Shown: positions 3,448-58,175, counted from the first letter of the stretch. The stretch: DNA of 64,000 bases from a virus (IMGVR_UViG_3300023198_001252:6320-70319); one strand, 5' to 3'. Program-made: numbers and translations. Notes: generated from the letters alone by a model not told the origin.

Positions 3448-3487
3448 TTTATTTATACCTCCTATATAATTAGCTTACTTATATTTT

Positions 3488-3772
3488 TTATATTATATTT
3501 TTTATACGATCTTCTAAATATATTTTTCTATCTCTTTTTGTTAACCATGTAAAAATATACATATTATTTTCTTTAATTACATTAATACCTTTATATTGAA
3601 AGAATCTAATAATAATAGGCAAGAAGGTATCGGCACTAGTTAAAAAAAACTGTATTCCTATATAACCACTTTTAGATGCTACATTTAACTCTTTATAAAG
3701 CTTTTTTATTCTTTCTTTTGTGTTGTTTTTTCTTGCTTTTATATAGTTTTGTTTAAAATTTTTTATTTTCAT
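3488..3772 (-). CDS. hypothetical protein, tandem paralog of 3175..3447
   Basis: Same shared pattern. Confidence 0.75.
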   Translation of the reverse strand: MKIKNFKQNYIKARKNNTKERIKKLYKELNVASKSGYIGIQFFLTSADTFLPIIIRFFQYKGINVIKENNMYIFTWLTKRDRKIYLEDRIKNII

Positions 3773-5512: not shown

Positions 5513-5581
5513 GTATTATTTAAGAAACAAAGGACTTTTATACTAATATTTAAATTATTTTAATTTATTTTAAAAAAACAC

Positions 5582-5669
5582 TCGACTTTTTAATTTTAAT
5601 TTAGTATTATATTATTAATAAGAGCTTGTAAGGGGTTACAAGCAAAAACAAACTTAAAGGAGTTACACG
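5582..5669 (+). promoter_or_regulatory. early promoter + conserved leader palindrome + RBS
   Basis: TCGACT-17-TATTAT, then GCTTGTAA-GGGG-TTACAAGC (5624-5643), then AAACTTAAAGGAGTTAC. Confidence 0.75.
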
Positions 5670-7674: not shown

Positions 7675-7978
7675 ATTGAACAAAAGTATTGACTTTTATA
7701 AAAAAGTTAGGAATATCGTATATAAATATGAGAAAGAAAATATCAACTTATGCAAAAGAAAACAATTTATCTTATATTTTTGTGACTGTGGGTTAGAAAT
7801 TGATAGAGATTTAAATGCGTCTATAAATATTTGTAATGAATATTTTAAAAATAATTCGGTGGAGTACATCGAATACAATCATGGAGAAACAATAAATCCT
7901 TGTAAAATTATTTATAATTTTTCAGGTAGTTTTAGTGAAGTGATTACCGAAAGTATTAACATTTGTTAAAACTTTTAG
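7672..7978 (+). mobile_element. 307-bp internally deleted IS607-type element (left end + tnpA start joined to tnpB end + right end)
   Basis: ATG 7728 encodes MRKKISTYAKENNLSY (IS607 TnpA-like HTH start), joined at TAT to the TnpB tail FCDCGLEIDRDLNASINI; near-identical to 12999..13303; boundaries inferred. Confidence 0.75.
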
Positions 7979-9971: not shown

Positions 9972-10003
9972 TAAAAACTATTTAATCTTTTTTAAAATAA
10001 TAC

Positions 10004-10055
10004 TTGACTTTTTAATTTATAAGTATTATCTTATTAATAAGAACTTGTAATTCTA
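10004..10055 (+). promoter_or_regulatory. early promoter with partial leader
   Basis: TTGACT-17-TATCTT; AATAAGAACTTGTAA. Confidence 0.6.
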
Positions 10056-10122: not shown

Positions 10123-10593
10123 ATGATGGATTTAAACGCAACAGATAATAAAAATATTTTAAAATTACAAAAATATAAAGCAATGGATCATCTTATTTTT
10201 GATGGTCGTTCTTTTAAATCATTAGAGAGATTAAAAGAGCATAAATTAGTAAAAATAGAAACAGCATATAATTGTAGTACTAAAAAGAATATACCTACTT
10301 TTTTTGTCACTTTAACAGAGAAAGGACTACAATATAAAAAGTTTCATAAAAATAAAACTATAATAAAATTAAATAAGCTTACAGCAGAAGCTGCTGTAAA
10401 TTGGAGATACTACAAAAGATTTAAAAAGTACGGTCTATATAAAATTATAAACATACTTACAAAAGAAGAGATAAAAGAAATAGGTATATATTTTGAATCG
10501 AGCAAAAAACTATTTAATCATATAAAATATATTTGGTATAAGAACAGAAAAGGCCTTACTAGTGATAGAAAAGAAAATAAAGAAATATTCTAA
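10123..10593 (+). CDS. hypothetical basic protein
   Basis: AAGGAG RBS; the 3' end overlaps the truncated tnpB. Confidence 0.65.
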   Translation: MMDLNATDNKNILKLQKYKAMDHLIFDGRSFKSLERLKEHKLVKIETAYNCSTKKNIPTFFVTLTEKGLQYKKFHKNKTIIKLNKLTAEAAVNWRYYKRFKKYGLYKIINILTKEEIKEIGIYFESSKKLFNHIKYIWYKNRKGLTSDRKENKEIF

Positions 10594-11158
10594 AATATTT
10601 GCAAGAAAACAAAAAGACAGTAAAAGGAGAGAAAAGTTTAGGGTAAAACTAGCAAGACTTTATGAGTATAAGAATAATTTTTTAAATCATTTTCATTGGA
10701 ATTTAGTACACAAACTGACTAGTGAGAACAAAGCTATATCAATTGAAAATTTAAATATTTCAGGGATGATTAAAAATAAAAGGCTATCACACTCTATTCA
10801 TTATTCTAATTTTGGAGGTTTTATTGATAAATTAGAACAAAAAGCGAATGACTATGATACAATTATTTATAAAGTTGGTAGATTTTATCCAAGCTCAAAA
10901 TTATGTTCAAAATGCGGAAATAAAAAAGATGATTTAAAATTATCGGATAGAATATATTTTTGTGACTGTGGGTTAGAAATTGATAGAGATTTAAATGCGT
11001 CTATAAATATTTGTAATGAATATTTTAAAAATAATTCGGTGGAGTACATCGAATACAATCATGGAGAAACAATAAATCCTTGTAAAATTATTTATAATTT
11101 TTCAGGTAGTTTTAGTGAAGTGATTACCGAAAGTTTTAACATTTGTTAAAACTTTTAG
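10562..11158 (+). pseudogene. tnpB: 5'-truncated tnpB (bridge helix, RuvC-II, Zn ribbon, RuvC-III) with right end
   Basis: ISIENLNISGM, YPSSKLCSKCG, DRDLNASINI; no RuvC-I DxG upstream (in-frame stop at 10520); 3' ~210 nt near-identical to both mini-elements. Confidence 0.85.
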
Positions 11159-12067: not shown

Positions 12068-12892
12068 ATGAAATTAAAACCAATAATCAAATGTCCCGGA
12101 GGAAAAACCAAGCTACTAGATACTCTACTCTCTATGATTCCTGAACATACAAGATATGTTGAACCATTTATAGGGGGCGGTGCTCTATTTTTTGCACTAC
12201 AACCCGAAGAAGCTTTAATCGCTGATGTTAGTCAGCAATTAATAAATGTGTATGAACAAATTAAGCACAATGTTGAATCCCTTATTATACTATTAAGAAA
12301 TCATAGGGAATCACACTCTAAGGAACACTATTACACAGTAAGAAAAGAGGATAAATCACCAATGTTTCAAAGATTACCCTATGGAGTAGATAAGGCTGCC
12401 CGTTATATATACTTGAATAAAACTTGTTTTAATGGTTTAATTCGGGTAAACAAATCAAATCAGTTTAACGTTCCAATGGGTGCTTATACACACCCTAGAA
12501 TATTAGATAAAGAAATGTTATTGGCTATTTCAGAATATTTAAATAACAATAATATTAAAATTAAAGCTACTGGTTTTACAAATATTTTTAATAATTTAGG
12601 AAAGGGGGATTTTTGTTATCTAGATCCCCCTTACCATTCAATATCGGAGACTAGTAATTTTACTGCATATACAGTGAAAGGTTTTACACTTACAGATCAT
12701 ATCCGATTGAAACTAGAATGTGATAAATTAACTAAAAAAAATGTCAAATGGGTACTTAGTAATTCCTATTGTAAAACTACATTAGACTTATGGAAAGATT
12801 ATGAAATTATTGAAGTTTTTGAAAAAAGAAATATAGCTGCAAATGTGAAGAGCAGAAAAAACATAAAAGAAATATTAGTAAAGAATTTTTAA
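12068..12892 (+). CDS. dam: Dam-family (D12 class) N6-adenine methyltransferase
   Basis: GGKTKLL, YVEPFIGGGALFF, YLNKTCFNGL, YLDPPY. Confidence 0.9.
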   Translation: MKLKPIIKCPGGKTKLLDTLLSMIPEHTRYVEPFIGGGALFFALQPEEALIADVSQQLINVYEQIKHNVESLIILLRNHRESHSKEHYYTVRKEDKSPMFQRLPYGVDKAARYIYLNKTCFNGLIRVNKSNQFNVPMGAYTHPRILDKEMLLAISEYLNNNNIKIKATGFTNIFNNLGKGDFCYLDPPYHSISETSNFTAYTVKGFTLTDHIRLKLECDKLTKKNVKWVLSNSYCKTTLDLWKDYEIIEVFEKRNIAANVKSRKNIKEILVKNF

Positions 12893-12998: not shown

Positions 12999-13303
12999 TA
13001 GATTGAACAAAAGTATTGCCTTTTACTACAAATAGGAATATCATATATAAATATGAGAAAGAAAATATCAACTTATGCAAAAGAAAACAATTTATCTTAT
13101 ATTTTTGTGACTGTGGGTTAGAAATTGATAGAGATTTAAATGCGTCTATAAATATTTGTAATGAATATTTTAAAAATAATTCGGTGGAGTACATCGAATA
13201 CAATCATGGAGAAACAATAAATCCTTGTAAAATTATTTATAATTTTTCAGGTAGTTTTAGTGAAGTGATTACCGAAAGTATTAACATTTGTTAAAACTTT
13301 TAG
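12999..13303 (+). mobile_element. 305-bp internally deleted IS607-type element, second copy
   Basis: Same tnpA-start/tnpB-end junction as 7672..7978; differs only near the left end. Confidence 0.75.
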
Positions 13304-14090: not shown

Positions 14091-14358
14091 TTATGGGTAT
14101 GTTTTTTATATGTGTATTGCAGGAAGATGCTATTTTAAACGTCTGAAAGGTAATTGAAAAGGATAAAGAATGTTAGAAAATATTATATCTATAATAAAAA
14201 GAAATCCTGAAAAAATAATCCCTACAATATACATTATTATGAGTATTGCTAGTGCTTTTATATATTTTAGAAAAAAAGATTATAAACATGGCATATATTG
14301 GATAGCAGCAGCAGTTATCACATGGAGTGTTACCTACTGATACTATTTTAAATAATAC

Positions 14359-14387
14359 TTGACTTTTTAAGTTATCTTTATTATATT
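14359..14387 (+). promoter_or_regulatory. sigma70-type promoter
   Basis: TTGACT-17-TATATT. Confidence 0.75.
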
Positions 14388-14419
14388 TTAAATATAAGAT
14401 TGTTAAAAAGGAGAGTATT

Positions 14420-16683: not shown

Positions 16684-16736
16684 AAAATACTATTTTATTA
16701 TAATTAAAATATTTTTAATTTATTTTTAAAAAACAC

Positions 16737-16820
16737 TTGACTTTTTAATTTTAATGTATTATATTATTAATAAGAGCTTGTAAGGGGTTACAAGCAATAA
16801 AAACTTAAAGGAGTTACAAT
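16737..16820 (+). promoter_or_regulatory. early promoter + leader palindrome + RBS
   Basis: TTGACT-17-TATATT; GCTTGTAA-GGGG-TTACAAGC at 16776-16795; AAACTTAAAGGAGTTAC. Confidence 0.8.
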
Positions 16821-35349: not shown

Positions 35350-35398
35350 TTTAATAACCTCTTGTATATCTAATTAAAATAAAATTTAAAACAATGTT

Positions 35399-35427
35399 TT
35401 GACTTTTTAATTTTAATTTAGTATTAT
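35399..35427 (+). promoter_or_regulatory. phage-type promoter driving an ncRNA
   Basis: TTGACT-17-TATTAT; spacer TTTTAATTTTAATTTAG identical to that of the 5582 promoter. Confidence 0.75.
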
Positions 35428-35431
35428 ATTA

Positions 35432-35564
35432 CCATACGTATTTTAAAATACGTATGGGTTGGTTCTACAACCTTAAGGTGAGATGGATTACTTTTTAAAA
35501 GTAATTATACTCACTAATCTGTACAATAAGTACAGAAATAGAACAGGCCTATAATACTATTAGA
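35432..35564 (+). ncRNA. orphan Cas12f/TnpB-type fused guide RNA (scaffold 35432-35544, guide from 35545)
   Basis: Shares CCTTAAGGTGAGATGG and TACTCACTAATCT with the tracr-like RNA near 49.1 kb; compensatory stem and pseudoknot changes. Confidence 0.75.
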
Positions 35565-46293: not shown

Positions 46294-48864
46294 TTATCCT
46301 ACACTATGCTTTATACTTTTTTGTATCATTGGTCTATGCAGTAATCTATAGCCCGATTCATCCGCACAATTAGATACTACTATTCCGTGTTCTATACAAA
46401 ATCTTTCATGTGTAGGAACTGTTAAACAATATACATCCTCATTAGATATGCTTTCTCTTTTTATCAAATGTACTAAATTTTGTTTATTTTTTTTTAATTT
46501 AACTAAGAAGAATTTATCTTCTTTTATTCTAATTGCATCGGCTCTTATCCATTTCTGACCTGTATAAAATAAATGGTCTGGTGTACATTTAATTCTCATA
46601 CCATCAGAAAAATATAATTTTATAACTTTTTTATTTTCCCCTACTAGTCTACAATTTCTATATTTTTGATAACCGCTATCTGTTAATACTTTACCCTTTG
46701 TATTTACTAAATCTTTTATAGCAATTTTACCTTTAGTAGTAATTACTTTAGTGTCCCCTGTAAAGCAGTGGTCTTCTTCATCTGTGTTTGAAACTAAAAT
46801 ATTATTTGCGTAATACAATCCTGCTTTTTCGGTTACAAGATTGTAAACCGTTTTTTTATCTTTTATATTTTCAATACTAGTTATACTTATATTTTTAATA
46901 CTCACATTATAACATTTATCAGAATATAGTTTAAAAAAATCATCAGTGATATTATCTTTATATTCTTTAGATATATTCACAATTCTTATCTTCTCTATAA
47001 TCTCTATTATTTCATTACGTGCTACTTTTTTATTTTTTTTATTTAATAGAATATCTTTGTCTAAATAAGATGAAAATAAAATAAAAGGAATTGTAGCAAA
47101 AACACTTAAATAATTAATATTCAACTTATAAGCCAACATACTTTTTGATTTATTCCATTGTACTTTTTCTAGTGTACTATTTATTTTTAAATCCTTTAAC
47201 GCTATTAACCCTTTTCCCGGAACATGTATCTTATGATTTGGTGTACCTTCTAAACTTTCACCATTTGAAAAAGTTACTTTTATTGTTTTACTCATTCCAC
47301 TGCAAATCGATTTTTTAACTTTACATAATCCTATTGGAGTATAAACTAAATCCTTTTTTGTAACATCTTCAATATTTTTAAGTTCTTTTTCAGTTTGAAC
47401 TTTGGTACCGGCAATAAAACAATTAATATCATCAGGATCTTTGTCATCTCTTCCCAATATTGGAACAGTTCTAATAAAAGCTTTACAATCTTCTGTAACA
47501 AATAATCCAGGATCCTCCATTGGGAATTTTAAAGCATCTTTAAACATTGTCCGCATTTTTTCCCATCTTCTCTTCCTACTACCAGGAGATTTATCAGCTT
47601 TTACAAAAATATGATTAGTTCTAGTATTTCCATAACCTTCATTAAGTAATTCAGCTATACTATCATTTTTATGATCTGCGTCAAATATAGAAGAGTCTCC
47701 AGGGCCAGGATTTATTTTAATAATATTAAATGCTTTTTTAATGTGTTGCTCTATTTTTTGAATACCTCTACCTATTTCTTTAGATGTTAATCTCAATCCT
47801 TTATTTTCTAGATTTGGTTGACAGCCATACCATTCCCAAAATCTAATTAATGTACCTTTTGGAAATGTTTTTTGTGCTAATTTTTCTATATAAGATCCAT
47901 CTAATTGTTTAATTTTATATATAATCGAAATAGGAGATCCATCTGTCATAGCCCAATAGCCTACAGAAAAAGGCTTCGATTGTCCATAGTCGAAAGACCT
48001 ATCTATGTACCAGGTATTAGGTATATTTATTCTAGGTAAAATGTGTACTTCTTTATCCCATACATCATCAAACATGCCACCAGCTACAATATCCCATGAA
48101 CCTTCAATCCATGCTTTCCTTATATTTGGATTTTTATTTTGTTCTAAATTTATCTCATACTCAGGATCATTATCTATAAATATTTTATTCTCAGATCTAC
48201 TACTATGTATGTAACAACGTTCACGAATCATTTCTTTTTTTGTGTTAGGGTTTTCTAACTTTTCTTCTATTACTTCACATGATTGATTTTCCGTTATTTT
48301 AAATCTTTTTTTAACCCAAAAATGCCCTTTTCCCCATGGATTACAAGTAGATCTAATCATTTTAGGTATCTCAGGATGTGAGGATCTGCAAATAGAAAAC
48401 ATCATGAGATATAACTCGTCTGTTCTCCAATTAGTTAATTCTTCCCAGCCGATAAAAGGATATGCATGTCCATGATAATTCCAATAATCATCAAGCCTGT
48501 TTGCATATCTAAAATAAAGTACCTCACCTTTTGGAAAAGTCCATTTATAATCAGAAGAATTAAATATCGCTTTTGGAAAAATTTGTTTAAACCACTTTAA
48601 ACTTTTTATCTTTATATCTTCTAAATTTTTATACGTTTCTCGAAAAATTATACCACGCCATTCAGCGCCATAACCTTTCCCAACATGCTGTAAGAAATTC
48701 ATTAAAAGTGCATCGGATTTTCCACCTGACCTATTCCCTTCTACTAGTACTTCAAATATAGGGCATTGTAGTAATAGGTCTTGAGCACCGGGATTAGGTT
48801 GCCAAATAACATTAATTTCTTTATTTAGTGTAGTATTATTATTCATTGATTTGTAATATAACAC
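46294..48864 (-). CDS. terL: terminase large subunit containing two inteins
   Basis: Walker A-like GNRSGGKS, Walker B-like IGWEEL, RSTCNP, RNase H DRSFDYG; two Hint insertions near the C-terminus. Confidence 0.9.
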   Translation of the reverse strand: MLYYKSMNNNTTLNKEINVIWQPNPGAQDLLLQCPIFEVLVEGNRSGGKSDALLMNFLQHVGKGYGAEWRGIIFRETYKNLEDIKIKSLKWFKQIFPKAIFNSSDYKWTFPKGEVLYFRYANRLDDYWNYHGHAYPFIGWEELTNWRTDELYLMMFSICRSSHPEIPKMIRSTCNPWGKGHFWVKKRFKITENQSCEVIEEKLENPNTKKEMIRERCYIHSSRSENKIFIDNDPEYEINLEQNKNPNIRKAWIEGSWDIVAGGMFDDVWDKEVHILPRINIPNTWYIDRSFDYGQSKPFSVGYWAMTDGSPISIIYKIKQLDGSYIEKLAQKTFPKGTLIRFWEWYGCQPNLENKGLRLTSKEIGRGIQKIEQHIKKAFNIIKINPGPGDSSIFDADHKNDSIAELLNEGYGNTRTNHIFVKADKSPGSRKRRWEKMRTMFKDALKFPMEDPGLFVTEDCKAFIRTVPILGRDDKDPDDINCFIAGTKVQTEKELKNIEDVTKKDLVYTPIGLCKVKKSICSGMSKTIKVTFSNGESLEGTPNHKIHVPGKGLIALKDLKINSTLEKVQWNKSKSMLAYKLNINYLSVFATIPFILFSSYLDKDILLNKKNKKVARNEIIEIIEKIRIVNISKEYKDNITDDFFKLYSDKCYNVSIKNISITSIENIKDKKTVYNLVTEKAGLYYANNILVSNTDEEDHCFTGDTKVITTKGKIAIKDLVNTKGKVLTDSGYQKYRNCRLVGENKKVIKLYFSDGMRIKCTPDHLFYTGQKWIRADAIRIKEDKFFLVKLKKNKQNLVHLIKRESISNEDVYCLTVPTHERFCIEHGIVVSNCADESGYRLLHRPMIQKSIKHSVG
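46369..46767 (-). other. mini-intein 2 in TerL (133 aa)
   Basis: CFTGDTKV...IKCTPDHLF...VYCLTVPTHERFCIEHGIVVSN / +1 Cys. Confidence 0.85.
46786..47421 (-). other. intein 1 in TerL (212 aa)
   Basis: CFIAGTKV...LEGTPNHKI...VYNLVTEKAGLYYANNILVSN / +1 Thr. Confidence 0.85.
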
Positions 48865-48895
48865 AATATTTTATTAATTGCAAGTATGAGATTTT

Positions 48896-48932
48896 GTTTC
48901 AATCCTTATTTTATCGTATTAGCTACTTCACC
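48896..48932 (-). CRISPR. single 37-nt CRISPR-type repeat with leader-like upstream sequence
   Basis: GGTGAAGTAGCTAATACGATAAAATAAGGATTGAAAC; its 3' half pairs with AATCTTATTTTAT in the nearby tracr-like RNA. Confidence 0.65.
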
Positions 48933-49071
48933 CCTTTTTGACACTTTTCCGCACACTTTTGATATGTAAAAACATGAGAAAAACGCTAAATAATTACAAA
49001 TACGGCTTGATATAACATTTCGGTTTTTACCGAACTCAAAAATCACCTATAGCAATATTTCGGTTTTTACT

Positions 49072-49160
49072 AAACATAAAATAAGATTAGTGAGTACAAT
49101 TCTTTCGATACCATCTCACCTTAAGGACGTAAAACCGCCCCACATGTATACAACATGTTT
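49072..49160 (-). ncRNA. tracrRNA-like scaffold of the Cas12f-like locus
   Basis: Stem GGGCG/CGTCC with GTTTTA loop, GTGAG/CTCAC stem, anti-repeat at 49088-49076. Confidence 0.7.
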
Positions 49161-49199
49161 ATTACGTGAAAATTCTTTTACACCCCCTTTGACAATAAT

Positions 49200-49275
49200 G
49201 ATTATTCACTTGTTACGTTTCAATCATTATTTTCTATGTATAGTACTTGTTTGTTTCAATCTTTACTCTCTACAA
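49200..49275 (-). CRISPR. two degenerate repeat handles ending GATTGAAAC, 36 nt apart
   Basis: GTTTCAATC on the + strand at 49217 and 49253. Confidence 0.5.
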
Positions 49276-49280
49276 TAATA

Positions 49281-49309
49281 ATTGTAGCAAAATCAGTATA
49301 ATAAGTCAA
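49281..49309 (-). promoter_or_regulatory. promoter for the ncRNA region
   Basis: TTGACT-17-TACAAT immediately after the Cas12f-like stop. Confidence 0.7.
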
Positions 49310-49324
49310 GTATTATTTTAATTA

Positions 49325-50516
49325 TTATACAACCTTCACCGACTGAGCAATATTAACAGCAGCGTTATAATCTCGATCAAGTTCCTCATTACATTCAGGG
49401 CATATATATTTCCTGTCACTTATTTTAATTTCCTTATTGATAAATCCACACTTATTACATGTTTTTGTAGTATTTTTAGGATTAACATATACAGTAGCTA
49501 TCCCATTCATTTTAGCTTTATACTCAATGTAACTTTGTAATTCATAATAAGTCCAATTCCTTCTAACCCATTCATTCTTTTTATCCGGCATTTTTTCAAT
49601 TAAACTCAATTTTTCAAGTTTAATAATCCTGGCTTTATGCCTTAATGCAAATTTTATAATTTCACAACTTACTCGATGGTTTACTGTTTTTACAAAATTA
49701 CGTTCTTTGTTTTTAAATTTTTCAATTACTTTTGTTTTCTTTTTTCGGCCTTTGCCTCCATGTGCAATTTTTATGTTTCTTTGCATTTGCTTTAACTGTT
49801 TTTGTAGACGTTGTCTAGTAATATAATAACTTTCATTATTATTCTTATGTCCTCCAATAAATGCACGTTGTAGCCCCTTAGATAATGCACAAACTGCTAA
49901 TGTAGAGATTCCAATATCTACACCTACGCTTAATGTAGAATCTAGTTTATTAGGTGTAACTGGAATATCTACACAAAGATTAAGGAACCATTTATTTTTA
50001 GTTTTATGATGTTGGATAGAAGAGCCACACGCTTTATAGTTACCTTCTATGATTTGTTCTATAATGTACTGGTTATTTGATTTATCCCTTCCAAACTTTA
50101 AATTAAATTTAATCTTTTCTTGCCATTTTAAATGTATTTCTTTATCTATTTGTATAAAAGGTTTACCTTCTTTTGTAAATGGAAAATAAATAGGAAATCC
50201 AAGCCTTCTATAATTTCTTAAACTTCTATCACCTCTTAAAATTTCTTTTATGTCTGCTTTAAATTGCCCTTGAATATTTTGAGCAATACAAGCTCTTATA
50301 GCTGTTTGATATTTTATAGGAAATATTCTGTGCTGAACCTGAATTATATAAAGACTTTACATAATCATTTATAATTTTTTTATCTTCTTCAACATTTTCT
50401 TTTATTTTATTTGTTAATTTTAAATTCATATATAAATCAGACATAATCCCATTCGCTAATGTATATGAATTATAAGATAAATCATGTAATCTTTTATGGT
50501 AACTATATATATTCAT
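49325..50516 (-). pseudogene. Cas12f-like / TnpB nuclease in three reading-frame pieces
   Basis: Joined translation: FKADIKEILRGDRSLRNYR, FGRDKSNN, KNKWFLNL, RuvC-I VGVDIG, RuvC-II IKLEKL, WTYYELQSYIEYKA, TTKTCNKCG, RuvC-III DRDYNAAVNIA; frameshifts near 50312 and 49823. Confidence 0.85.
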
Positions 50517-50540
50517 GTACTAAATAATAAAACAGAAACA

Positions 50541-50579: not shown

Positions 50580-51524
50580 TTAATCAATAATTGTTTTAGT
50601 GGTGCCTTTTGGAAGCTCTGCTATAACTTTTTTTAGATATGGTAATATGCTTTTATCTTTTTTAGAGAAATAATCGAGTCCTTTTTGCTGTAGCCAAATT
50701 TGATTGAAATATAATCGAAATTCCGTTATTATTTCATTTGGGTATAACCTTGCATATACGGGAGCTCTTTTTCCGTCATCAAATTCATGCCGATATGAAG
50801 GGAAATTATCAGGTTCATATCCATTATCTCTACACCATTTTGAGAACATTCTTCCCATAGAAATATCAGGCATTAAGTTGGTCGGCAAAATATAGCCGTG
50901 TTGTTCTAACGGCGCGACAAGTCGAAGAGTCATTTCGTCTAACATTGAAAAGTGCGTATGTGGAATTCTAGATCTATTTATTAAGTAACGTCTAATGTGA
51001 TAAGGAATTTTATACTGTGTTTTTTGAGTTCCTTCCATCCATTCAAATACCCATTTAGAAACTAAATTTGCAAATTTTGCAGAAGCCCATTGCCCTAAAT
51101 TTACAGCAACTCGAGGATGTACCCATGTACCCTGTTCTTTTTTGCGGTTTCCACCTTTAACCTTTTGAACTAATTCCGATATGGGAATTCCCATATCGGA
51201 AGACACCTCTTCTAAAAACTCATTAGTATTCTTAAGTCTATCATAGTCTGCATATTTTTTACCACATGCTGTACACAATTCTGTAGCATTAATGTACCCG
51301 TCATACGCTCTTTGGTTTATTCTTACTGTGTCTACTTCATGTTCAATAAATGGTAATAATCCCTGTCCTGTCTCATCAAATTTAATTTCGCTAATAATGT
51401 ACCTCCTAGTACTTTTATTGTTTTGTGTATTTATTATACCAATAGCAAATACAAAAGTCAAATTTATTATGTTTATTTTCTTAAAATTATTTTTATAGTT
51501 TTTAAACTTTTTATAAAGTGACAC
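50580..51524 (-). CDS. KilA-N domain protein (true start probably downstream of 51524)
   Basis: DGYINATELC, QGTWVHPRVAVNLGQWAS. Confidence 0.9.
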   Translation of the reverse strand: MSLYKKFKNYKNNFKKINIINLTFVFAIGIINTQNNKSTRRYIISEIKFDETGQGLLPFIEHEVDTVRINQRAYDGYINATELCTACGKKYADYDRLKNTNEFLEEVSSDMGIPISELVQKVKGGNRKKEQGTWVHPRVAVNLGQWASAKFANLVSKWVFEWMEGTQKTQYKIPYHIRRYLINRSRIPHTHFSMLDEMTLRLVAPLEQHGYILPTNLMPDISMGRMFSKWCRDNGYEPDNFPSYRHEFDDGKRAPVYARLYPNEIITEFRLYFNQIWLQQKGLDYFSKKDKSILPYLKKVIAELPKGTTKTIID

Positions 51525-51570: not shown

Positions 51571-52476
51571 ATGTTTGATTTGTTAAAATTTGAGAGTATA
51601 TTACAGTTAATAGAAGCTTTCCCAACTGAATTAAGTTGTTATATCTACTTAGAATCTCTTTTATGGTATGATGGGATTGTATGTCCTCATTGTGGATCTA
51701 CTCATAAGTTTTGGAGACTCAAAGATCAAAGAATGCTTAAATGTTCAGTATGTAAAATGAGGTTTACAGTTAAAACCGGTACTGTATTTGAAGAAACTCG
51801 TTTATCACTTCGTAAATGGTTTGTAGCTATCTTTTTAATCAGTGTACATTCTAAAGGCATTTCAAGCGTTCAATTATCAAAGGATTTAAGAATTACACAA
51901 AAAACAGCATGGTTTTTAAATCATAGAATTCGTTTCATAATGAACTCATTTAATGAAGGTGAAAAATTAACCGGTATTATCGAAGTTGATGAACATTATG
52001 CCGGTGGAGTTGAAAAGAATAAACACACAGACAAAAAGACACCCAATAATCAAGGCCGTTCTACAAAGACTAAAACTGCCGTATTTGGTATGGTTGAAAG
52101 AGCGGAAAAAGACGAAAGTGGTAATAAAATAAAAAATGCAAAAGTAATTGCTTATAAAGTTGATAATGTAAAGACTAAAACCTTAACCAATGAAATTGAA
52201 AACAATGTAGAAGCTGGCGCAAAAGTAATGAGTGACGAATATCAAAGTTACCGAAAATTAGGCTATACTTTTAAACACCAATATATAAGACATAACAGTG
52301 CTGAATACGTAAGAGGAAATGTACACACAAACACAATAGAGGGATTTTGGGGACTGTTTAAGAGGATGTTTATAGGTATCTATCATTTAATGAGTAATAA
52401 GCATATAAACCGCTATTTATCAGCTTTAGCCTTTAGGTATAATATTATCATCCTTATTTTCTTATACCTTACCTAG
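51571..52476 (+). mobile_element. IS1595-family transposase, probably 3'-clipped
   Basis: Zn ribbon CPHCG...CSVC, IIEVDEHY, VMSDEY, HTNTIEGFW, RYL...FRYN then unrelated sequence. Confidence 0.85.
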
Positions 52477-55825: not shown

Positions 55826-56225
55826 AGATAAATTCCCCTTTGTGGTTTAATTAATTTTATTATTATTATAGTGTTGTATAATCTCTTATATCACACCCCT
55901 TCATTATTTAATTTTTCATTAATTGCAGCAGTAATAAAATCTTCAATTGTAATATTATTTTTTGCTACAAAAGATTTAATTAATTCAATAATGCTTTTAT
56001 TCAATAAGCTTTTTATTCTGTTCTATACCCCCCATTTACAATTATTTTTATAAATAAAAAAAGACCCTCATTATTACCATCAGTTTTGACCAGTATATAA
56101 CAACCACACAATTGGTATATACAAACTAATGATATTAAAAAGAGTCTTTGTTGTGTGTATTTTTATTCCTCGGTCAAAAGGATAATTGATAATAACATAG
56201 CCTAAATAATTAGTCTAGTATTATT

Positions 56226-56582
56226 TTATTTAGTTTTTAACAATCCTAGTTTTTTTAGTTTCTCTTCTACATTTTTTCTAACGGTTTCAGGATCTTTAAA
56301 TTTCCTCCTTTGAGGATTTAATATTTTCGCTCCACAACCACCACAATATTTAGATTTTTCAACATTGCCGGTATACTCACAAATATCACATTTAAAAAAT
56401 CCTATAGTATTTTCATATCCATAAAAAGAAATTATACTATCTTTATGCTTATTAAATAAAAATTCATATAATACTCTTAATATTCCAGGTTTATATTCTT
56501 TTTTTCTAATTAAAGCCTTTTTTAATCTTTTTTGTACCTTAAGTAGTTTCTTTTTATTCTTACCCCTTACTATTATTTTCAT
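56226..56582 (-). CDS. zinc-ribbon protein
   Basis: FKCDIC...YCGGCGAK. Confidence 0.6.
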   Translation of the reverse strand: MKIIVRGKNKKKLLKVQKRLKKALIRKKEYKPGILRVLYEFLFNKHKDSIISFYGYENTIGFFKCDICEYTGNVEKSKYCGGCGAKILNPQRRKFKDPETVRKNVEEKLKKLGLLKTK

Positions 56583-57725: not shown

Positions 57726-57806
57726 ATTAACTCCTTAAGTTTATATTGCTTGTAACCCCTTACAAGCTCTTATTAATAATATAATACATTAAAAGTAAAA
57801 AGTCAA
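57726..57806 (-). promoter_or_regulatory. early promoter + leader palindrome + RBS
   Basis: TTGACT-17-TATATT; palindrome at 57748-57767; AAACTTAAGGAGTTAA. Confidence 0.8.
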
Positions 57807-58175
57807 GTATTATTTTAATTAAAAAAAAGTTTTATTTAGTAATAAAAGACATTTCAAAATTATCTCCACACATTGGAGAATCATTTGCATAAGCTGATAA
57901 TATTTGTCCATATCCTTCTACAATTGGAACATAAAAAAGAAAACATCCACCATCTCCCCACTTATCAAAATGTTTACATTGTTTACATTTTATATCTTGT
58001 GTATATGCTTTTTGTAAATCCGTCATAATACTTCCCCCAACTCACCAATCATTAGTAAAAGATTCATATTTAATTGAAGTGTATTCGTTTACAAATTCTA
58101 TAAATTTTTCTTTTAAATCTGTAGGAATCTCTTTCATGCTTTTTATTTCTTGTTTATACTCATTATTATCTTCCA

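Follow-up and report, generated by a model that had tools for sequence, protein, structure and literature searches.

In the gap between a Cas12f-like nuclease gene and a tracrRNA gene, a phage genome carries two short copies of a CRISPR repeat end, spaced at 36 nt and placed just behind a promoter. A preliminary description of the sequence read these 'handles' either as a pre-trimmed cassette of several guides or as a decayed array. Which of the two accounts for the locus, or whether the handles serve some other end, is the question addressed here.

A phage-borne Cas12f locus

The window, that is, the whole stretch of 64,000 nucleotides analysed, is part of a 75-kb IMG/VR virus record. All features of the module of handles, tracrRNA and repeat lie on the minus strand, in a gap of 460 nt bounded by a TnpB/Cas12-like gene (49325-50519) on one side and the large terminase gene (46294-48864) on the other. 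From 5' to 3' on that strand, the gap contains the promoter, a first handle (psiR1), a 19-nt segment (S1), a second handle (psiR2), about 59 nt, the hairpin and core of the tracrRNA, a linker of ~140 nt, a full-length repeat (R3) and the terminase promoter. The features are given below, where L012 is the locus of the closest relative, P0001 its Cas12f protein and CM R1 the covariance model of the tracr core.

49325..50519, minus strand: cas12f gene, broken (Cas12f/Cas12u3 HMMs, BLASTP against P0001, reading frames)
49281..49309, minus strand: predicted sigma-70 promoter of phage type (TTGACT-17-TACAAT with TG extension, 10 of 12 matches)
49253..49269, minus strand: psiR1, AGAGTAAAGATTGAAAC, truncated repeat 3' end (GATTGAAAC copy, 20-nt repeat family)
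49234..49252, minus strand: S1, AAACAAGTACTATACATAG, 19-nt segment between the handles, not a credible spacer
49217..49233, minus strand: psiR2, AAAATAATGATTGAAAC, truncated repeat 3' end (GATTGAAAC copy, 20-nt repeat family)
49191..49234, minus strand: predicted hairpin sequestering psiR2 (arms 49234-49222 and 49203-49191; loop GAAAC plus GTAACAAGTGAAT)
49076..49160, minus strand: tracrRNA (hairpin 49160-49141, core 49140-49081, anti-repeat AATCTTATTTTAT at 49088-49076)
49014..49081, minus strand: linker (28-nt direct duplicate and small hairpin TTCGGTAAAAACCGAA)
48896..48932, minus strand: R3, full-length repeat of 37 nt with the end AAGGATTGAAAC (5' half resembles the L012 repeat)
48876..48895, minus strand: S3, flanking DNA behind R3, which runs into the terminase promoter, the closing repeat being absent
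35432..35545, plus strand: second tracr-type RNA gene, fused and guide-like (own promoter at 35399-35427; 54.1 bits with CM R1)

The locus is a phage-borne type V-F (Cas12f, V-U3 clade) system. BLASTN of the locus against INPHARED phages returned zero matches, and the best phage relative sought via the terminase was 57% identical. Rfam recognised no family in the window at threshold; its only CRISPR-DR matches were sub-threshold and fell on R3.

The nuclease gene is broken

The product of the TnpB/Cas12-like gene is matched by the PADLOC profiles for Cas12f (PDLC01699, E=6.1e-85, residues 18-342 on profile positions 85-394 of 399) and Cas12u3 (E=1.1e-84), and by the NCBIfam model guided_TnpB for the RNA-guided TnpB family (168 bits); its scores with the IS200/IS605 and IS607 TnpB models are far below the cut-offs. 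Homologues are 405-460 aa long, and three of them (P0001, P0005 and P0010) match Cas12f profiles over their full length. The longest ATG ORF in the phage gene is of 153 aa. By BLASTP, the piece at 50262-50519 corresponds to residues 23-97 of P0001, and the piece at 49325-50356, in another frame, to residues 109-429, while residues 1-22 and 98-108 of P0001 find no in-frame counterpart. At the site of the frame change 10 nt are found versus 33 in the homologue, an out-of-frame deletion, and the first ~22 codons are missing or garbled, their place being taken by the terminator region of the KilA-N gene upstream. The RuvC columns are kept (D in VGVDIG, E in IKLEKL and D in DRDYNAAVNIA), so that the decay could be recent, or an assembly error could be behind part of the breakage. 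The only other TnpB-like gene in the record (10123-11149) is of an unrelated type and is also split. Because no intact nuclease is present in the record, the handle units would be expected to guide nothing in cis.

Some neighbouring genes deserve mention in their own right. The second TnpB-like gene, on the plus strand, consists of ORFs of 156 and 195 aa and is 29% identical to Cas12f; two ~278-nt copies of its 3' end (7676-7969 and 13016-13294, plus strand), mutually 100% identical, carry the remnant of a Cas12f1-like TNB domain. The C-terminal half of the large terminase subunit (minus strand, 856 aa) contains Hint/intein splicing domains. Next to the broken cas12f gene, on its upstream side, lie a KilA-N protein gene (50580-51524, minus strand) and an IS1595-family transposase gene (51571-52476, plus strand), a region that looks like a mobile or accessory gene patch beside the packaging module.

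The handles are related to CRISPR repeats

The 9-mer GATTGAAAC is found on the minus strand at 49261-49253, 49225-49217 and 48904-48896, that is, three times within 366 nt; a fourth copy, at 12705 on the plus strand, is unrelated. Shuffled sequences are expected to hold 0.65 copies per window, and none of 100 shuffles reached the observed four. These positions bear out the exact spacing of 36 nt just after the promoter that had been reported for the first two handles. Together with the end of R3, the handles form a 20-nt direct-repeat family (D1) with 85% identity, of which psiR1 and psiR2 retain 17-20 nt.

Could such similarity arise by chance in A/T-rich intergenic DNA, the handles being unrelated to any repeat? 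The region is indeed A/T-rich, TRF called no tandem repeat at the handles, and the duplex energies detailed below are only marginally better than those of random 22-mers (p about 0.02-0.06). We nevertheless give this explanation almost no credence, given the excess of exact 9-mers on one strand, the identity within the 20-nt family, the same arrangement in L012, and an excess of internal repeats: the gap contains 29 pairs of duplicated 14-mers, versus 3.3 +/- 4.1 in simulations (p about 0.003), which fits a history of rearrangement. Moreover, the same repeat end is found in real arrays of relatives. The R3 end AAGGATTGAAAC is also present in L457, an array of a Brocadia MAG whose Cas12f is only 29% identical, near-identical ends are found in L386, L388 and L427, and AAGGATTGAAAC or AGGATTGAGAC recurs in the true arrays of distant relatives. 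Since these ends recur there, and since the repeat:anti-repeat duplexes of L012 and L388 likewise have a single bulged base behind their first 3-4 pairs, the handles are, judging by sequence, genuine CRISPR repeat 3' ends, oriented as a repeat-guide crRNA requires.

The resemblance stops at the 3' end. The preliminary description had also likened the 36-mer to a degenerate full repeat, a suggestion that we rejected: the 5' parts of psiR1 and psiR2 bear no resemblance to the 5' half of R3 (p about 0.2 to 0.76), nor do the segments upstream of them resemble the 5' half of the L012 repeat (p 0.49-0.74), and TRF was silent. Among the three handles, only R3 has a 5' half resembling that of the L012 repeat (p=0.035). 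A CRISPR array is recognised by at least two full repeats with unique spacers of family length between them; here R3 is the one full repeat, and psiR1 and psiR2 are 36 nt apart versus 65-75 nt between repeats in the arrays of relatives. A scan of IMG/VR for AATAANGATTGAAAC gave at least 116 single chance matches, none of them with a tracr core or an array.

Two further repeats were noted within the gap. The linker contains a 28-nt direct duplicate (D2; 49014-49041 and 49054-49081, 82%, spacing 40); extension of the TGTCAAAGGGGGTG duplicate into a further copy of the repeat was tried and is unsupported (p=0.64). A 24-nt inverted repeat (79%; 49271-49294 versus 48890-48913) pairs the -10 region of the promoter with the R3 handle, and brackets the whole RNA module.

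Pairing with the tracrRNA, and a hairpin that competes

The tracrRNA scores 60.6 bits with CM R1, which was built from an alignment of 22 tracr cores (A4) in which compensatory changes support 9 of the 14 pairs of the core fold. This model has 111 matches in 169 viral or metagenomic loci of relatives and 36 in 80 bacterial ones, in total 147 matches in 249 loci, 100% of them on the strand of the gene. In many of these Cas12f relatives (L021-L184, L383-L462), which are mostly on viral contigs, the core is present in duplicate or triplicate, usually with a copy ~1 kb before the gene and another shortly after it, and invariably in the orientation of the gene. The present phage has exactly two, at 49140-49081 and 35457-35523, the second 13.6 kb from the cas12f locus and 75% identical to the first. 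As the stems of both are kept through compensatory changes, the RNA side of the system appears to have been under recent constraint.

Each handle is complementary to the anti-repeat, with one bulged base after GATT. The base pairing proposed in the preliminary description is therefore correct, but the energies are weak: RNAduplex gives -7.0, -6.7 and -8.4 kcal/mol for psiR1, psiR2 and R3 (p = 0.046, 0.056 and 0.016 versus random 22-mers of the window), and the best duplex of psiR1 falls outside the proposed register. These modelled duplexes are thus marginal in energy. In the minimum free energy (MFE) fold of 405 nt, it is R3 that pairs with the anti-repeat.

The alternative fold-back of the second handle, also noticed earlier, is borne out. 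psiR2 pairs with AATCATTATT through 13-nt arms that are 92% complementary (I5), and this hairpin is present in both MFE folds as well as in the centroid fold; at -10.4 kcal/mol it is predicted to be more stable than the psiR2:anti-repeat duplex (-6.7). psiR2 would then be mostly locked in its own hairpin, and psiR1 could be a weak competitor of R3 for the anti-repeat. When terminal repeats were tested across the family for trapping in hairpins, there was no signal, or if anything the reverse, in a comparison confounded by the fact that internal windows include the next repeat.

Promoter and predicted transcription

From the promoter at 49309-49281 transcription is predicted to start at ~49273-49276, which places psiR1 at the 5' end of the predicted RNA. 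The -35 context, ATAATACTTGAC, is common to the L012 promoter and to the phage's promoter repeat families D13 and D20. Since the promoter belongs to the phage's own family, and no good promoter is found directly before the tracrRNA (49160-49076), the handles are probably the 5' leader of the tracr transcript. The earlier proposal that they are tracr-pairing repeat 3' ends preceding the tracrRNA on one predicted transcript is upheld.

The near-identical members of this promoter family, with the consensus ~AATA(A/C)TTGACTTTTTAATTT...TATTAT, drive numerous genes on either strand, the two tracr-type RNA genes among them (sites at 5573-5613, 9991-10048, 14346-14403, 16724-16781, 35390-35430, 49298-49333, 56206-56241 and 57795-57830). 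At the other end of the module, the terminase promoter is TTGCAA-17-TATATT (48883-48855, minus strand). The would-be guide of R3 (48876-48895, minus strand) is DNA adjoining the locus, and overlaps the -35 box of this promoter (48855-48883, minus strand).

The 19-nt segments are not credible guides

When the stretch is read as 17-nt handles each followed by a 19-nt segment, it yields AGAGTAAAGATTGAAAC + AAACAAGTACTATACATAG, then AAAATAATGATTGAAAC + GTAACAAGTGAATAATC..., and AACAAGT is present in both S1 and the second segment (S2), at offsets 2 and 3 from psiR1 and psiR2, as had been described. The window contains 17 copies of this 7-mer versus 14.4 expected, hence no enrichment; because its frequency is so close to expectation, its occurrence at both post-handle slots is not attributable to chance (the probability of the second slot holding the same 7-mer, by arithmetic from the window count, is ~4e-4). 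Furthermore, S1 and S2 are similar (p=0.026); the two segments are not independent of each other. The 3' half of S2 is an inverted copy of its own handle, psiR2. S1 is in addition identical at 16 of 20 positions to the tracr 5' hairpin situated 92 nt downstream (D3, p=0.0004 per comparison). As the partner was chosen post hoc, and the window has many matches at up to 5 mismatches (24 of them), this is only suggestive of S1 being a paralogue of that hairpin.

A functional cassette would consist of two crRNAs of mature size, each with a 17-nt handle and a 19-nt guide, directing cleavage by Cas12f. The 36-nt unit is the size of a mature Cas12f-type crRNA, both handles have the GATT, the bulge and an A/T-rich stretch complementary to the anti-repeat, and the strong promoter would provide psiR1 with a ready-made 5' end. 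However, the nuclease gene is broken and psiR2 is predicted to be sequestered. The guides themselves are at odds with such a role, since 7 nt are common to the two and 6-8 nt recur in the leader and trailer of L012, half of S2 derives from its own handle in inverted form, and 19 nt is about half the length of spacers in the family (30-38 nt). Nor was a target found by the spacer search against phage sequence that had been proposed earlier: within the window, S1, S2 and S3 matched, at up to 5 mismatches, only themselves or scattered sites with at least 4 mismatches, none with an intact seed, and S1 and S2 had 0 exact matches each in the 2.9 million viral contigs of IMG/VR. That the locus is a pre-trimmed multi-guide cassette is thus unsupported, and we hold it to be very unlikely.

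Had the segments been guides, they might be expected to vary among homologues while the handles do not, as the preliminary description pointed out. The start of the putative spacers is in fact conserved in L012 (AACAAG, or AACAAGTG), so that the outcome named there as refuting the guide reading is observed in part.

Comparison with relatives suggests a collapsed array

L012 has an intact Cas12f (P0001) with 55% protein identity. Its order is gene, promoter, an orphan handle at the start of the transcript, leader, an array of five repeats, a degenerate last repeat, ~74 nt, and tracr. The repeat is 38 nt long and ends in GAGATTAGAAC, and the anti-repeat of the tracr pairs with the repeat end. 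The leader behind the orphan handle contains AACAAGTG, and AACAAG directly follows the last, degenerate repeat; the four regular spacers of L012 start otherwise. A second copy of the module (terminal repeat, ~77 nt, tracr) lies at the opposite flank of the gene.

The order in the window is that of L012 minus the array body. psiR1 has its counterpart in the promoter-proximal orphan handle of L012, which retains 19% identity to the repeat in its 5' half, and psiR2 in the terminal degenerate repeat upstream of the tracr; in L012 (L012:1-335 included) such terminal repeats lie 74-80 nt upstream of each tracr, and psiR2 lies 59 nt upstream of the tracr hairpin. As L012 is the sole reasonably close relative, this homology to end repeats is that of one comparison. 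L012, again as the sole relative close enough, keeps the promoter-proximal handle with AACAAG(TG), without the 36-nt handle pair. An alignment of the trailers of the window and of L012 was unconvincing beyond the last ~10 nt.

Orphan handles, defined as copies that keep the last 14 nt of the repeat with a 5' half of less than 60% identity, were found in 19 of 128 arrays adjoining Cas12f relatives, mostly one period beyond the full repeat at either end of the array. When relatives were scanned for handle arrays of short period (28-44 nt), the hits were mostly chance 9-mers, plus a collapsed array in L034, a phage Cas12f locus (3468-3535), where one full 37-nt repeat is followed 8 nt later by a partial one (1.6 repeats), directly before the next gene. 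Gene, tracr and array occur in varied orders in L015, L017, L018, L019, L181, L183, L184, L386, L388 and L427. L433, from Sulfoacidibacillus thermotolerans Y002, has the order gene-tracr-array and the same tracr build. We take this strain to be the source of AsCas12f1.

As psiR1 and psiR2 match the promoter-proximal and terminal repeats of L012, we consider it somewhat probable that the handles are the remnant of an array, collapsed to its two end repeats, between cas12f and tracr. The decayed array of the preliminary description is in this sense the favoured reading, and the broken nuclease gene and the orphan handles of the family speak for it as well. An array would once have separated cas12f from the tracrRNA gene, an arrangement that L012 still has, with psiR1 as the truncated repeat directly behind the array promoter and psiR2 as the terminal degenerate repeat before the tracr. 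The array body would then have been lost, most simply via recombination between repeats, and S1 and S2 would be remnants of leader or trailer rather than captured spacers. The stretch would now, most likely, be transcribed from the phage promoter as a 5' leader of the tracrRNA.

A regulatory role is a less likely alternative

Several points run against the collapse of an array, among them the apparent recent constraint on the tracr cores and the intact RuvC residues. The promoter, which is of the type used by the phage itself, is strong, and the conserved AACAAG(T) sits at a seed-like position, as in regulatory crRNA-like RNAs (bioRxiv 10.1101/2023.03.03.530964). A promoter leading straight into a handle of ~17-23 nt is kept in the active locus L012, a hint of use as opposed to decay alone.

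The handles might accordingly be regulatory or decoy crRNA-like RNAs. Short guides with an AACAAGT seed would steer a Cas12f, of the host or of a co-infecting phage, to a site of partial match without cutting, or the units would act as mimics or anti-tracrs that titrate tracrRNA or Cas12f, and the psiR2 hairpin would be an on/off element. Several precedents can be cited. Phages carry solitary repeat units, positioned directly after a promoter, that function as RNA anti-CRISPRs (Racrs; Camara-Wilpert et al. 2023, PMC10651486), and psiR1 is likewise a repeat-like unit directly behind a predicted phage promoter. In regulatory or viral mini-arrays (Shmakov et al. 2023, bioRxiv 10.1101/2023.03.03.530964), two repeat-like sequences enclose a spacer-like segment within a viral CRISPR-cas locus, as psiR1-S1-psiR2 do, and conservation is limited to the seed-like start, just as AACAAG is conserved here and sequences diverge beyond it. 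Hairpins that block repeat-tracr pairing in II-A, and trapping hairpins in II-C, have been described (PMC13187072), and the psiR2 hairpin is predicted to outcompete the duplex of psiR2 with the tracr.

The differences are substantial, however. Partly complementary promoter targets characterise the mini-arrays, whereas the window has no partly matching target with an intact seed, the best candidates having 4-5 scattered mismatches; AACAAGT, besides not being enriched, is absent near the cas12f 5' region and near the second tracr of the window, and the leader guide of L012 likewise has no convincing target in L012. The repeats are truncated to handles with a 36-nt period. Mini-arrays are mostly of type I and V-A, V-F being unmentioned (bioRxiv 10.1101/2023.03.03.530964), and no Racr of V-F is described; Racrs typically do not adjoin cas genes and mimic the repeat of a host (PMC10651486), whereas the present units lie inside a decayed Cas12f locus of the phage itself, and there is no known cognate host system. 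The handle:anti-repeat duplexes are, moreover, weak. We therefore regard a regulatory or decoy function as rather unlikely.

A more specific proposal is that the trimmed handle, its 5' end set by the promoter, is a designed feature of the Cas12f lineage, namely a processing-independent crRNA-like RNA with an AACAAG seed that regulates the system, or that gates the anti-repeat by means of the psiR2 hairpin. This we think quite unlikely; if true, type V-F would gain its first described cr-like regulatory RNA or anti-tracr switch, here kept by the phage after loss of the nuclease. More generally, were the promoter-to-handle design functional, cr-like regulatory RNAs would extend to type V-F.

Relation to known systems

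In its Cas12f/Cas12u3 profile matches and its repeat-guide crRNA layout, as in the build of its tracr (hairpin, (A/T)TAA, GNNGAG...CTCNNC stem, anti-repeat), the locus resembles V-F Cas12f loci (V-U3, or AsCas12f1-like). It differs from them in being phage-borne with a broken nuclease gene, in having no array body but one full repeat and two truncated ends upstream of the tracr, and in the presence of a second, fused tracr-type RNA gene elsewhere in the phage.

If the handles are what is left of a collapsed array, the nearest parallel is found in degenerate terminal repeats and the 'extraneous crRNA' (Liao et al. 2019/2022; Migur et al. 2026, PMC13187072), where end repeats decay or are masked by a hairpin, which prevents a guide from being made of flanking sequence. 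psiR2 is similarly an end repeat, predicted to be masked by a hairpin with its own trailer. Such repeats have been described for V-A, II-A, II-C and VI, and not for V-F (same references). The window is unlike them in that the 3' handle is kept and the 5' half lost, and the family-wide hairpin signal is absent. The finding is thus one of degenerate end repeats, or the remnant of a mini-array, in a Cas12f locus, and no new class. It exemplifies how arrays wear, the tracr-pairing part that is retained on the mature guide outliving the rest of the repeat, as with the orphan handles in 15% of arrays next to related Cas12f genes. It also calls for caution, as repeat ends at a guide-length spacing can mimic a designed cassette.

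The locus may also be compared with TnpB omegaRNAs and with transposon-CRISPR intermediates. RNA genes are located 3' of a TnpB-like nuclease gene, the guides behind R3 and behind the second tracr are flanking DNA, and fused and split forms coexist. R3 with its flank and the RNA at 35432-35545 fit the omegaRNA layout, whereas psiR1 and psiR2, upstream of the scaffold, do not. Unlike these systems, the protein belongs with the Cas12f models rather than with IS200/IS605 or IS607 TnpB, and the relatives carry true arrays with varied spacers. A relation to the Cas12 'hacker' (Cas12p) was set aside, that protein being of 500-700 aa and of a different family. A phage Cas12f locus that combines a split guide (tracr and repeat) and a fused one with guides made of flanking DNA bears on how the single RNA of TnpB was split into tracrRNA and crRNA.

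The second tracr-type RNA (35399-35545 with its promoter, plus strand) is of the fused, omegaRNA-like form and runs antisense to the late genes around it; at its 3' end it has a short hairpin, CTGTAC-aataa-GTACAG, behind which come GAAAT and flanking DNA. In L012, each tracr copy is followed by a T-run, a repeat-like handle (AGGAGATTAGGAA at L012:283-335 and TAAGATTAGAA at L012:2222-2265) and an A-rich stretch that continues into the RBS and ATG of the following gene; both have the look of fused guide forms accompanying a true array within one locus. At L012:124-165, two degenerate handles, ATGATAGAAAGGCTAGAAC and then TGGCAGAAAGAATAGAATCC, stand in tandem without any spacer between them.
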